Shown here: positions 33,155 through 37,411 of the stretch, in pieces
Layout of the letters: each line of letters opens with the position of its first letter
How positions within the stretch are numbered: the first letter of the stretch is position 1
Translations under genes and position numbers: made by a program
Notes under the pieces: model-generated
The model's input: only the letters and a program-made list of their open reading frames with translations
Database searches by the model: none
What the model was told of the DNA's origin: nothing
Assembly: GCA_036389935.1 (NCBI GenBank)
Contig: DASWCU010000064.1
Location: 3,628 to 67,627 of the forward strand
Origin: Candidatus Limnocylindria bacterium
GTDB taxonomy: Bacteria > Chloroflexota > Limnocylindria > P2-11E
Direction: 5' to 3'
Length of the DNA stretch: 64,000 bases

Positions 33155-36100
33155 CTACTGCCCGCCGGAGAGTCCGAGGCCGGGCTGCGACGGCCGGTTC
33201 GTGGCGAACGTCGCGATCGACGCGATCTTCGCCTCGCCGGTGGCCATCACCTTCACGCCCTGGGTCGCGCGGCCGAGCGCGCGGATCTGCTCGATGGGCA
33301 CCCGGATGACGACGCCGGTCGTCGTGATGAGCAGGATCTCTTCGCTCTTCTCGTCGACGACCTGGATCGCGGCGACGCCGCCGGTCTTGTCGGAGAGTGA
33401 AGCGAGGATGACGCCCTGGCCGCCGCGCTTGTGCGTCGGGAACTCCTCGACCGCGGTGCGCTTGCCATAGCCGTTCTGCGTCACCGACAGCACTTCGGTG
33501 CGCGCGACCGCGACGCCCATCCCGATGACCTCGTCGCCTTTCGCGAGACGGATGCCGGTGACGCCCTGCGTCTGGCGGCCCATCGGACGCGTGTCGGTCG
33601 CCTTGAAGCAGATCGCCTTGCCTTTCCGCGTCGCGAGCACGATCCGATCCTTGTCCCCGCAGGCCGCGACCCACGCGAGCTCATCCCCCTTGCGGAGCGC
33701 GATCGCGATGAGCCCGGCGCGCCGGACGTTGCCGTACTCGCTCAGCGGGGTCTTCTTGATGAAGCCCTTGCGCGTGGCCATGACGAGATGCTGGGCGCCG
33801 CTGCCCTCGCGGATCGCGATGAACGCCGAGACGCGCTCGCCGGACTGCATCGCCTCGAGGATGTTCTGGATCGGGATCCCCTTGGCGGTCCGGCTCGCGT
33901 CCGGAAGCTCGAAGACCTTGAGCGCGAACACGCGACCGCGGTCGGTGAAGACGTAGAGGCGATCGTGGGTGCGGGCGACGAGGAGATGGTCGACGTCGTC
34001 CTCCTCGCGGGTCGCCATGCCGATCACGCCGCGGCCGCCGCGATGCTGGGCCTTGTACGTCGAGAGCGGCATCCGCTTCACGTAGTTGCGGCTCGAGACC
34101 GTGACGACGACGTCCTCGTCGGCGACGAGGTCGGCATCGGTGAGCTCGCGGTTCCGGTCGTCCAGGATCTTCGTCCGCCGGTCGTCGCCGTACTTCTCCG
34201 CGAGGTCGTCCATGTCCTGCTTGATCAGGAACAGCACCTTCTTCGGATTCGCGAGGATCGATTCGAGCTCGGCGATCGTCTTGATGATCTCGCGGTACTC
34301 GTCCTCGACCTTCTGCCGCTCGAGCCCGGTGAGCCGGCGCAGCTGCATCTCGAGGATCGCCTTGGCCTGGGCCTCGGAGAGGCCGAACTTCTCGCGGAGG
34401 TTGTTGAGCGCGGTCTCGGGTGTCTTGCTCGCGCGGATCGTCTTGACCACCTCGTCGATGTGGTCGAGCGCGATCTTGAAGCCCTCGAGGATGTGCGCGC
34501 GCTCGCGCGCCTTCGTGAGATCGAACTCGGTGCGCCGGCGGATGACCTCGCGGCGGTACTCGATGTGCAGCCGGAGCACGTCCTTGAGCGAGAGCGTCTT
34601 GGGCTGCGAGTCGACGAGCGCCAGCATGTTCAGGTTGAACGCCGACTGCATCGCGGTGTGCTTGTACAGGTTGTTGAGCACGCGCTCGGCGCTGTCGTCG
34701 CGCTTCACCTCGATGACGATCCGCATGCCGTCGCGGTCGCTCTCGTCACGGATGTCGGAGATGCCCTGCAGGCGCTTCGCCTGGACGAGCTCGGCGATCT
34801 TCTCGATGAGCGAAGCCTTGTTCACGGCGTACGGGAGCTCGCTGACGATGATCGCCTGGCGGCCGCCCTTCATGTCCTCGACGAACGCGCGGGCGCGCAT
34901 GAGAATGCGTCCGCGCCCGTTCGCGTAGGCGCGGCGGATCGCGTCGACCCGCTCCGTCGCGCCGGTCTCGACGTTCTTCTGCTCGTCGTAGCGGTAGATG
35001 GTGCCGCCGCCGGGGAAATCGGGACCGAGGACCGTATCGCAGAGGTCGTCGGTGGTGAGCTCGGGATCGTCCACGAGCTTCTTCACCGCGGCGGTGACCT
35101 CACGAAGGTTGTGCGGCGGGATGTTGCTCGCCATGCCGACCGCGATGCCGGTCGAGCCGTTCACGAGGAGGTTGGGCAGCCGCGCGGGCAGCACGCTCGG
35201 CTGCATGTGGCGGTTGTCGTAGTTCGGGTACCAGTCGACGGTCTCACGCTCGATGTCGGCGAGCAGCTCCGCGGCGATCATCGACGGACGAGCTTCGGTG
35301 TTGTGGCTGACGAACCCGTTCGTGATGTAGCTGTGGTCGTCGGTGTCGACGCGCAGGGAATAGACGGGCTGCGCGCCCGCGTCCTCGATCGACGCGACCT
35401 CGGCGTAGTAGTACGTGCCGTCGACGAGCGGCGCGATCACGCAACGGACCTCGTCGTTGGTGATATGGGCGAGGATGGTCTCGCGGTCACGTTCCCAGCG
35501 CTCGATCCGGTCGATGTTGTGGCGGTTCAGCCAATCCCGATCGACCCATCGGCCGGAGCGCTCGTGCCGGACGTACGCGGCGACGAAGGGGACCGCGTCC
35601 GAGCTGAGCGCGGTGCTGGCGAGCGGAATGGCGGCGAGCTGACCCTCCAGCTTGCGCTGCTTGGCTCCGTGGAAGCCGACCGCGGTGGCGAACCGGCGTC
35701 CGTCGCGCCGGTTCGTGATGACGACCTTGATCTCGCCGTCTGCGTGGTGGCATTGCTTCGACACGACGCCGAGCTCGAGCAGGAGCTGCTGCACGTCGCT
35801 CGCGAGGCCCGCGCTTCGGGTCGAGTAGCTGATCTGGATCGCGACGCGGCTGCCGTTCCGCAGGAGCGAAGACGAGCCGTCACCTTCGAAGAGCGCCCGG
35901 AGGAACGCGGCCTTGAACGCCGGTCGGGCCGCCCAGACGAACGACGGGACGCGCTTCGCGGCGCTGCGCGCGCCGACCAGCGCCGCGAGCGGGCTCGTGC
36001 GGAGGGCCGTCATGTCCTGGACGTCGAGCTCGTGGATGAGGCTCGCCGAACGGATCGTCCGCGAGTAGCTGTATCGCCTGCCGCCGACGATCTCGTCGTA

Positions 36101-37411
36101 CGCGCCCACGACGGCGTCGAAGTAGTCGCGGTCCAGGTCGTTGGATCCGGCGCGCCGCTCGGAGACCCAGCCCTCGGAGATCATGCCGCCGGCCAGAGTC
36201 GCGAGCGCAAGCTCGCGCCCCGTCAGCACGCCGCCGCTCGGGAGCGGCCGCCTGAGCATCGCCACGCGGTCGCCAGGTGCGAGCTCGGCGAGGAGCTTCC
36301 AGATCAGCATCGGCACGCCGGCGACCGGCACGAGGCACAGGACCGGATGGTTTCGGGTGCCGGTCAGCTCGTAGCCCTCGCGTGTCCGCAGCCGGAGCGT
36401 CGGGTGCACGCCGGAGTGGAAGAGCTTCGATGCCATCACGGGCTCGCCGCGACGATCCAGCGCCCGTAGGTCCACGTCGTTGTCGGACTCGGGCCGCACG
36501 TTGGTGAAGATGTCCCCGATCGGCGTCGTTCCGGTCGCCGTGCGGATCAGTGTGTCGGCGGTCACGCAGTAACGCATTGCCGCTGGCGGATCGTCATCGA
36601 TCGAGTTGTGCACGAACACGCCGGCGGCGAGCGCGAAGTTCTGGGTCACGTCGACGGTGAGGTCGTACACGTCCGCCCGGCCCGCGGGCTCGACCGACGC
36701 GACGGACTGCGAGAGGCTGGCTGGGATCGGGAACGCGCCCGTGCGGTGAAGGCGTTCGGGGATCGCCGTGCGCGCGAACGGCATGAGCTGGTCCTTCGGC
36801 TTGAGCTTCTCCGCCTCGCGGTACGTGCCGCCGCGCAGCATGAAGCGATGGTCGGGCGTGCAGACGATCTCCACGCCCGAGGCGAGGGTCACCTTGACCA
36901 CCGGATCGTTGCGGCGCACCAGGCGCGGGGCGCGGATCGGCTTGATGCGCACGTTGCGGTGCGAATCGAGGGTGAACACCTCGGCCCGCACGCCCCGATG
37001 CACCATGTCGACGAGCTCCACGAAGGTGCGCTGCTCGCCGTTCACGAGCTCGATCTTCGTGTCGCCGGCGAAGCAGCCGAAGTTGCCCTGCCCCTGGATC
37101 GGTGGGTAGCGCATGGTGAAGTCCTGCGCGAAGCGCGCGAGGGCGTCGTAGATCGGCGCCTCGCCGTGCGGGTGATACTTCCCCATCACGTCGCCGACGA
37201 TCGCCGCGCACTTGCGGTATCCGCGATCGGCCCGCAGCCCCATCTCGTGCATCGACCAGAGGATCCGGCGCTGCACCGGCTTCAGTCCGTCGCGGACATC
37301 CGGCAGCGCGCGCGCGACGATGACCGTCATCGCGTAGTCGAGGTAGGCCTTGCGCATCTCGACCTGCAGGTCCACGTTGACGATGCGTTCCTGCCGCGGC
37401 TCTTCGATCAC
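33155..37411 (-). CDS. gyrA: DNA gyrase subunit A precursor (1418 aa) containing two inteins; mature extein ~838 aa
   Basis: N-terminus '[24 protein letters not shown]'; extein motif split as QGNFG|intein1|[12 protein letters not shown]|intein2|TEARP; C-terminal GyrA beta-pinwheel repeats; GTG start in a GTGA overlap with the upstream thioesterase. Confidence 0.9.
   Translation of the reverse strand: [1418 protein letters not shown]
35300..36568 (-). mobile_element. GyrA intein (423 aa) with LAGLIDADG-type homing-endonuclease region at the classical AMRY/TEAR site
   Basis: Begins '[13 protein letters not shown]', ends '[21 protein letters not shown]' followed by Thr +1; strong similarity to mycobacterial GyrA inteins (Mxe/Mle); internal '[10 protein letters not shown]' and '[10 protein letters not shown]' LAGLIDADG-like blocks. 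Confidence 0.85.
36605..37075 (-). mobile_element. GyrA mini-intein (157 aa, no endonuclease domain) inserted between GNFG and SIDDD
   Basis: Begins '[13 protein letters not shown]', ends '[23 protein letters not shown]' followed by Ser +1; canonical Cys1 and His-Asn C-terminus; boundaries checked codon by codon. Confidence 0.75.

Follow-up and report, generated by a model that had tools for sequence, protein, structure and literature searches.

Two inteins around a 12-residue catalytic-tyrosine segment in the GyrA precursor of a Limnocylindria-like Chloroflexota genome

Neighbouring inteins are known from other replication proteins. The closest conceptual precedent for the gene described here is the pair of neighbouring inteins MCM-a and MCM-d of haloarchaea, in which doubly occupied alleles coexist with singly occupied alleles in related genomes (Turgeman-Grott et al., 2023; PMC10643990). 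In DnaB, the intein sites a and c are two residues apart, according to a survey of inteins (Novikova et al., 2016; PMC4760082). The same text counts 50 bacterial GyrA inteins in Actinobacteria, Aquificae, Chloroflexi and Proteobacteria. The GyrA site of Mycobacterium xenopi has been labelled 'GyrA-a' (Kelley et al., 2016; PMC5050341), a label that suggests, but does not prove, that more than one GyrA site has been catalogued. A passage on an archaeal search in another study states that 23 intein-containing GyrA sequences were removed from a gyrase data set (Villain et al., 2022; PMC9348778). Here we describe a gyrA gene located in 64,000 nucleotides of contig DASWCU010000064.1 from a Candidatus Limnocylindria bacterium (GenBank assembly GCA_036389935.1); this whole stretch is called the window. 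The gene contains two in-frame inteins, intein a and intein b, separated by 12 codons that end with the codon of the catalytic Tyr.

As in MCM-a/MCM-d and DnaB a/c, the intein sites of this arrangement cluster in the best-conserved catalytic motif of a replication protein. As in MCM, doubly and singly occupied alleles are found in related genomes. It differs from both pairs in its spacing of 36 nt, by which the catalytic residue itself comes to lie in a micro-extein. Furthermore, only one of the two neighbours has an endonuclease, so that the co-homing interference discussed for MCM would not carry over unchanged.

The gyrA precursor is one open reading frame (ORF) comprising an 838-aa GyrA extein and inteins of 157 aa and 423 aa (Table 1). 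In the full precursor, the Pfam families DNA_topoisoIV, DNA_gyraseA_C (six blades), Intein_splicing and LAGLIDADG_3 are all matched, and the NCBIfam gyrA equivalogs score above cut-off. Both inteins have Cys at position 1 and end with His-Asn, which is followed by Ser in intein a and by Thr in intein b. The N-extein ends at a residue that we take to be the equivalent of E. coli G110, counting back from Tyr122. The 12-residue micro-extein serves intein a as C-extein and intein b as N-extein. With its Ser it supplies the +1 nucleophile for intein a, and with the catalytic Tyr at its end (codon 36569-36571) the -1 residue for intein b. In the following, a slash within a site name marks the point of insertion, so that intein a lies at GNFG/S and intein b at RY/T.

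Table 1. Features of the gyrA locus and other genes of the window. Positions count from the first nucleotide of the window.
Feature	Position	Strand	Details
gyrA precursor CDS	33155..37411	minus	1418 aa, GTG start, one uninterrupted ORF (ORF listing, Pfam, NCBIfam)
N-extein	37076..37411	minus	aa 1-112, last residues GQGNFG
Intein a	36605..37075	minus	aa 113-269, 157 aa, between GQGNFG and SID
Intein a, block A	37037-37075	minus	13 residues
Intein a, block B	36842-36865	minus	VCTPDHRF
Intein a, block F	36620-36673	minus	18 residues
Intein a, block G	36605-36619	minus	VFVHN
Micro-extein	36569..36604	minus	12 codons, between inteins a and b
Intein b	35300..36568	minus	aa 282-704, 423 aa, between AAMRY and TEAR
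Intein b, N-splicing part	about 36239-36568	minus	block A (13 residues); block B (10 residues) at 36338-36367
Intein b, endonuclease domain	about 35474-36238	minus	
Intein b, LAGLIDADG motifs	35876..36196	minus	LAGGMISEG 36170-36196; LRALFEGDG 35876-35902
Intein b, C-splicing part	35300-35473	minus	block F 35315-35368; block G FVSHN 35300-35314
C-extein	33155..35299	minus	aa 705-1418 and stop codon, first residues TEARPSMI
4HBT-type (hotdog) thioesterase gene	37408..37974	minus	between gyrB and gyrA, N-terminal CxxC motif
gyrB	37932..40010	minus	intein-free; candidate GTG start at 40010
tmRNA gene	3553-3907	plus	139.6 bits, ordinary
tRNA gene (single)	47934-48005	plus	ordinary

Removal of both inteins in silico restores a normal gyrase subunit. 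The active-site region then reads as an uninterrupted stretch, of which 20 residues span the two junctions. The N-terminal 226 aa of the spliced protein align to Staphylococcus aureus GyrA (PDB 6fqm, E=2.5e-85) over residues 7-225. This alignment is gapless and runs through both intein junctions, and GyrA chains of other species give comparable results. The match of the extein spliced in silico is far beyond chance. A first-pass annotation, made from the sequence alone, had divided the 1418-aa frame into an extein of about 838 aa and two in-frame insertions with Cys1, a terminal His-Asn and a following Ser or Thr. Mapping reproduced its coordinates exactly, and the termini are as it had described. 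For annotation, the 1418-aa ORF is to be read as an ordinary gyrA that contains two inteins, and neither as a fusion nor as a pseudogene.

The 157-aa insertion that splits QGNFG/SID had been read as a mini-intein, and the profile matches, the intein blocks and the predicted fold all agree with this. When searched alone, intein a matches Pfam Intein_splicing (PF14890) with 58.0 bits (cut-off 35.8), TIGR01445 intein_Nterm with 45.1 bits (cut-off 24.5) and TIGR01443 intein_Cterm with 22.9 bits (cut-off 15.6). It has no endonuclease domain. Intein a was aligned with 14 alleles from distant phyla, giving 15 sequences in total. The invariant columns are C1, D5, T6 and G13 in block A, C72-T73-x-x-H76-R-F78 in block B, D135, Y137, D138, T140, N146 and F147 in block F, and V155-H156-N157 in block G. 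The residues expected of a class-1 intein (C1, T73-P-D-H76, H156-N157 and the +1 Ser) are thus present and invariant in the 15 alleles. Length varies in this alignment only in the linker after block B. This linker is the place where larger inteins nest their endonucleases. An AlphaFold2 model of intein a (mean pLDDT 86.4, pTM 0.81) adopts a HINT fold. The best 50 Foldseek matches of the model in the PDB are all inteins or bacterial intein-like (BIL) HINT domains, including Mtu RecA, Npu and Ssp DnaE, Ssp and Npu DnaB, and Pho RadA, with E values down to 2e-9 and TM scores of 0.7-0.8. By its sequence, intein a is a canonical class-1 mini-intein that is predicted to splice.

BIL domains are HINT domains of variable, non-essential proteins that typically lack a +1 nucleophile and cleave but do not splice. 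We rejected this identity here, since the host is the conserved and essential gyrase, the +1 Ser or Thr is present, and the extein is colinear after removal. The nearest relatives of intein a outside GyrA, among protein-database matches, are inteins in the TOPRIM domain of GyrB, with 38-50% identity (P0029 and P0030). They share with intein a the C-terminus ...NFAL[AS]AGVFVHN/S and a Gly/Ser junction. They differ in host protein and site (GG/SAKQGR in GyrB), and the gyrB of the window is free of inteins. This likeness suggests that the lineage of intein a moved between the two gyrase subunits in the past. A hidden Markov model built from intein-a alleles and run against the six-frame translation of the window matched only gyrA.

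Intein b belongs to the classical Tyr/Thr family of GyrA inteins, in which the Mxe GyrA intein is the best known. Mycobacterial GyrA inteins, such as those of the Mxe (1AM2/4OZ6) and M. leprae types, share with intein b the Tyr/Thr site, the Cys1, the terminal His-Asn and the +1 Thr. Full-length mycobacterial alleles contain a LAGLIDADG endonuclease, as intein b does, whereas the Mxe GyrA mini-intein has none. Intein b is inserted directly after the catalytic Tyr and is followed by the +1 Thr (AAMRY/C...HN/TEAR). Against the Mxe GyrA intein 1AM2, it matches in two stretches (E=2.1e-51) that correspond to the N- and C-splicing halves, with the endonuclease domain between them. It shares 53-58% identity with Mycobacterium-labelled matches and 55-65% with Actinomycetota GyrA inteins. 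The host is a soil-type, Limnocylindria-like member of the Chloroflexota, in contrast to the actinobacterial hosts of the mycobacterial alleles. Intein b alone matches LAGLIDADG_3 (PF14528) with 61 bits (cut-off 22.5) and both TIGR01445 and TIGR01443 above cut-off. It also matches the intein region of NCBIfam NF038098, 'intein-containing DNA gyrase subunit A', with 562 bits. Both LAGLIDADG motifs keep an acidic residue at motif position 8 (E and D, respectively), and the homing endonuclease is probably still active. We conclude from these features that intein b is a canonical class-1 intein of the classical Tyr/Thr GyrA family with predicted splicing. The first-pass annotation had arrived at the same assignment, a 423-aa LAGLIDADG intein at AMRY/TEAR next to the catalytic Tyr with mycobacterial homologs.

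The first-pass annotation knew of no described intein at the GNFG/S site. To see how often it is occupied, one genome per species was scanned for 185,579 species, using DNA that encodes G-[Q/H]-G-N-F-G followed by C-x3-D-T. By our own calculation (4^-18 x 2^-4 x 1.2e12 positions), about one match is expected by chance. At least 120 species, bacterial and archaeal, were found to have the site occupied, and the idea of an unoccupied site was rejected. All 120 listed loci translate to G[QH]GNFG/C[FL]xxDT in an open frame. In 95 of them the fetched DNA includes the downstream junction, and all 95 end with HN/S[IVLM]D, after which GyrA resumes. The GNFG/S insertion is not new, and intein a is a member of a homologous intein family that is widespread across phyla.

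The hosts, sizes and relatives reported from here on are those among the matches listed. Chloroflexota hosts include the cultured Oscillochloris trichoides DG6 as well as Anaerolineae, Ktedonobacterales and Limnocylindria. Many hosts belong to the Patescibacteria/CPR, Omnitrophota and Planctomycetes, and others to the Armatimonadota, Acidobacteriota and Elusimicrobiota. Gammaproteobacterial hosts are the cultured Thiocystis minor DSM 178, a metagenome-assembled genome (MAG) of Thiocystis violascens, and Competibacteraceae. Archaeal hosts are Methanoperedens, Methanosarcinales, Nitrosotalea and, within the DPANN, Woese-, Pace-, Nano- and Micrarchaeota. The same pattern gave no matches in viral contigs, a result that neither supports nor excludes carriage of the GNFG/S intein by phages.

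The alleles at GNFG/S have in common with intein a the insertion point and the signature CF[TSA]xDTK...CTPDHRF...DVYDLTV..., which continues with 13 further residues. Identity to intein a is 75-90% within its own clade and 32-48% in distant phyla. The 95 resolved alleles fall into 33 mini-inteins of 139-267 aa, 42 alleles of 390-395 aa and 20 alleles of 466-528 aa. Intein a is a 157-aa mini form, whereas most resolved alleles (62 of the 95, 390-528 aa) are large and have an inserted domain. This domain has no LAGLIDADG match, and its matches to HNH_3 are below threshold (E=0.007 and 0.04). It contains the conserved motif VRHHI.F.....N.P.NI.R....EH...H (loci L001-L003, L078 and about 60 others) and may be a homing endonuclease of the HNH type.

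The first-pass annotation had also implied that a GyrA with two inteins is special. Six further genomes have a second intein directly after RY. Two are Candidatus Limnocylindria MAGs with inteins of 157 and 424 aa each (L031 and L063). The others are a Methanosarcinales MAG (L024; 154 and 434 aa), a Woesearchaeota MAG (L061; 394 and 437 aa), an Armatimonadota MAG (L079; 520 and 438 aa at the two sites of the window) and a gammaproteobacterial MAG (L108; 391 aa and a truncated second intein). When other oversized ORFs were mapped onto the extein of the window, a third GyrA intein site was found, ...IVG[D/E]/C[M/L]G.YHPHG, at window extein position ~74-78. It is empty in the window and occupied in seven scanned genomes (L012, L014, L023, L033, L066, L079 and L092). 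The Armatimonadota gyrA (L079, JAYUUO010000001.1) has three inteins of 441, 520 and 438 aa within ~50 extein residues. The two-intein GyrA is therefore not special, and the arrangement recurs in several phyla.

Taken as a survey, these data place no fewer than three intein sites of GyrA within ~50 residues of its catalytic Tyr, and they show a GNFG/S family of three size classes that extends over bacteria and archaea. To intein biology the locus itself contributes little, since public genomes commonly have either of its two sites, or the two together, occupied. What is left is a modest curiosity, the 12-residue micro-extein with the catalytic Tyr between two inteins. The precursor is a workable substrate for studying two splicing reactions around such an extein, and equivalent or more extreme substrates exist elsewhere, such as the triple-intein Armatimonadota gyrA. 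Among the papers reached by full-text searching, none was found whose text names the GNFG/S site or a two-intein GyrA, and PMC3359363 and PMC3655853 contained nothing of relevance. GNFG/S hosts occur in phyla named by the survey of Novikova et al. (2016; PMC4760082), and the site is thus very probably catalogued in its supplement. An explicit published description of the multiple intein sites of GyrA is apparently lacking.

The two inteins have different histories within the clade of the window. The nearest relatives are Limnocylindria-type Chloroflexota MAGs, of which L031 and L063 have an extein identity of 86-87% to the window; one protein-database match is also labelled Candidatus Limnocylindria. 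Intein a measures exactly 157 aa in each of the ten closest genomes (extein identity 72-87%), and its identity of 75-90% tracks that of the extein. Beyond the clade, extein identity drops to 55-60% and that of intein a to 32-48%. In three protein fragments (P0004, P0006 and P0026), the mini-intein is likewise followed by RYTEAR without a break. It is the pattern left by an immobile intein that has become fixed in the Limnocylindria-like clade and that appears to be inherited vertically and to co-diverge with its host. Across the window and these ten genomes, intein b is present only in the window, L031 and L063. It is absent from L015, which is just as close, with an extein that is 86% identical. 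Intein b is 72-73% identical to the copies in L031 and L063 and thus more diverged than the host gene (86-87%), and its next-best relatives are the Actinomycetota GyrA inteins (55-65%). A single clade therefore presents a clear contrast between a fixed, vertical mini-intein and a sporadic neighbour that bears an endonuclease.

Pairwise dN/dS was estimated by the NG86 method, and the values are approximate given a dS of 0.4-1.2 and a GC content at third codon positions (GC3) of ~0.95. They are 0.09-0.17 for intein a, 0.03-0.21 for the exteins and 0.17-0.26 for the intein-b endonuclease domain. These values indicate purifying selection on every part of the gene, endonuclease included. The dS of intein b is 0.72-0.89 compared with 0.52-0.57 for the C-extein, which would indicate that the coalescence of intein b is somewhat deeper than that of the host gene. 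GC3 is uniform (0.92-0.96) across the exteins and both inteins, so neither intein would be a recent arrival from a compositionally different donor. A local dip is found in the 22 extein codons that flank the intein-b site (36569-36604 and 35270-35299), where 14 of 22 codons end in G or C against an extein background of 0.949 (binomial P ~8e-6); every other run of 22 extein codons has at least 18 of 22. The dip could be a co-conversion tract left by homing, or it could reflect a nucleotide-level constraint on the endonuclease target. Our own count gives a weaker dip for L063 and for L015, which lacks intein b, and no dip for L031.

Two further observations concern relatives of the window. In two protein-database entries (P0001, 271 aa, from a 178-kb contig, and P0016), the gyrA product ends or leaves the frame just after the mini-intein. 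They read SIDDDPPGAD and then ALHRGAPRG..., where P0026 has RYTEAR. These frameshifts in the micro-extein are probably assembly or sequencing errors and not split genes. In addition, a contig labelled Candidatus Bathyarchaeia archaeon (L004, DASPWX010000019.1) has a 157-aa mini-intein of the Limnocylindria type and a GyrA extein that is 75% identical to that of the window. This contig is probably of bacterial origin and placed by mis-binning in an archaeal MAG.

We consider it highly probable that the precursor carries two independent class-1 inteins flanking the catalytic-Tyr segment, with intein a immobile and vertically inherited and intein b sporadic through homing. Each intein would remove itself after translation. 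An N-S acyl shift at Cys1 would be followed by transesterification to the +1 Ser (intein a) or the +1 Thr (intein b), after which the terminal Asn would cyclise and an O-N shift would complete the process. For the active-site region of the 838-aa GyrA to be rebuilt, both inteins would have to splice. Since the catalytic Tyr lies in the micro-extein between them, gyrase would be inactive until both splicing reactions are complete. Intein a would stay splicing-competent because gyrase is essential. The LAGLIDADG enzyme of intein b would cut intein-b-less alleles at RY/T, and intein b would be copied into them by homing. Its retention of a probably active endonuclease would thus explain why intein b is present in some close relatives and absent from others. 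LAGLIDADG enzymes have targets of roughly 14-40 bp, and the site recognised by the intein-b endonuclease probably reaches no further than the mini-intein, which lies 36 nt upstream.

Some points weigh against this account. Splicing and endonuclease function are deduced from sequence, and with only 12 residues between them, the two HINT domains could hinder each other in folding or splicing. Intein b has a modest excess of dS, which local rate differences could explain in place of horizontal movement. The dN/dS values come from a simple NG86 estimate at high dS and very high GC3. Finally, the whole GyrA precursor scores 1507.1 on NF038098 (GyrA_w_intein), below the cut-off of 1850. This last shortfall is expected because of the divergence of the protein and its extra upstream intein. 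NF038098 is a narrow exception model for single-intein proteins of the mycobacterial type, and the score concerns only membership of that curated family.

The 157-aa insertion has no endonuclease and is fixed and vertical in its clade, as a structural insertion would be, and it might accordingly be taken for a lineage-specific GyrA loop or domain that is kept in the mature protein. Such a loop would have to lack the intein blocks A, B, F and G, all of which are present. Three intein profiles score above their cut-offs, the splicing residues are invariant across phyla, and the model has a HINT fold. The same site holds alleles of 390-528 aa with an extra domain in other phyla, and the insertion breaks GNFG-S-D, a strictly conserved motif at a distance of 12 residues from the catalytic Tyr. 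A retained loop is effectively refuted by the profiles, the conserved blocks and the fold, and we give it next to no credence. No more credible is an assembly or binning artefact, that is, a chimera of two gyrA alleles, even though the source is probably a metagenome-type assembly and look-ups of the identical GyrA and ParA products found neither on record. The reading frame is perfect across four junctions, and the uniform GC3 argues against a chimeric assembly. The same architecture occurs in the independent MAGs L031 and L063, at an extein identity of 86-87%, and four unrelated lineages are doubly occupied. Misassembly, which had been named as a possible source of error when the two inteins were first noticed, was rejected on the basis of the uniform GC3 and these independent MAGs.

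A more serious alternative is that one or both inteins are decaying. The endonuclease of intein b might be inactive, with the element persisting only because a precise deletion is impossible, or splicing might be impaired. Many intein endonucleases are degenerate, the activity of this one is predicted from sequence, and intein b (72-73%) is more diverged than its host (86-87%). On the other hand, both LAGLIDADG motifs keep the acidic catalytic residue, and the endonuclease dN/dS of 0.17-0.26 is far from neutral. The presence/absence polymorphism in very close relatives fits ongoing gain and loss. The splicing residues are intact, and gyrA, which is normally essential, lies in an intact gyrB-thioesterase-gyrA operon. 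Decay is thus the less likely reading, although it keeps about a quarter of our belief. Much less probable is a co-opted role of the fixed mini-intein, alone or together with intein b, as a post-translational switch that would make gyrase conditional on, for example, redox state, temperature or stress. In favour of this reading are the long retention of the mini-intein under host-like purifying selection, its position next to the active site and a conserved Cys72 before the block-B Thr. Both Turgeman-Grott et al. (2023; PMC10643990) and Novikova et al. (2016; PMC4760082) discuss conditional splicing by inteins of replication proteins. However, retention and purifying selection are expected of any immobile intein in an essential gene, from which only precise deletion removes it. 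Cys72 is conserved across the whole allele family, mobile alleles included, and is not an adaptation specific to the clade. It is a long shot, then, that the mini-intein of this clade acts as a conditional-splicing checkpoint and that, where intein b is present, the micro-extein imposes an order or cooperativity on splicing. If this were true, checkpoint and ordered splicing would form a two-step post-translational gate on an essential topoisomerase.

The gene order around the locus is chromosomal, with parA (40888-41682), gyrB, the 4HBT thioesterase gene, gyrA and an M23 peptidase gene. The thioesterase stop codon and the GTG start of gyrA overlap by 4 nt, and this overlap points to translational coupling within an operon of gyrB, the thioesterase gene and gyrA. 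The mechanically called gyrB ORF extends over 37932-40907, and homology to GyrB begins only at about aa 300-340. The N-terminal ~300 aa of this ORF are rich in Arg, Pro and Gly and have no GyrB homology, and the true start of gyrB is probably near the GTG at 40010. Across the region, the high-GC DNA gives long spurious ORFs that overlap on both strands.

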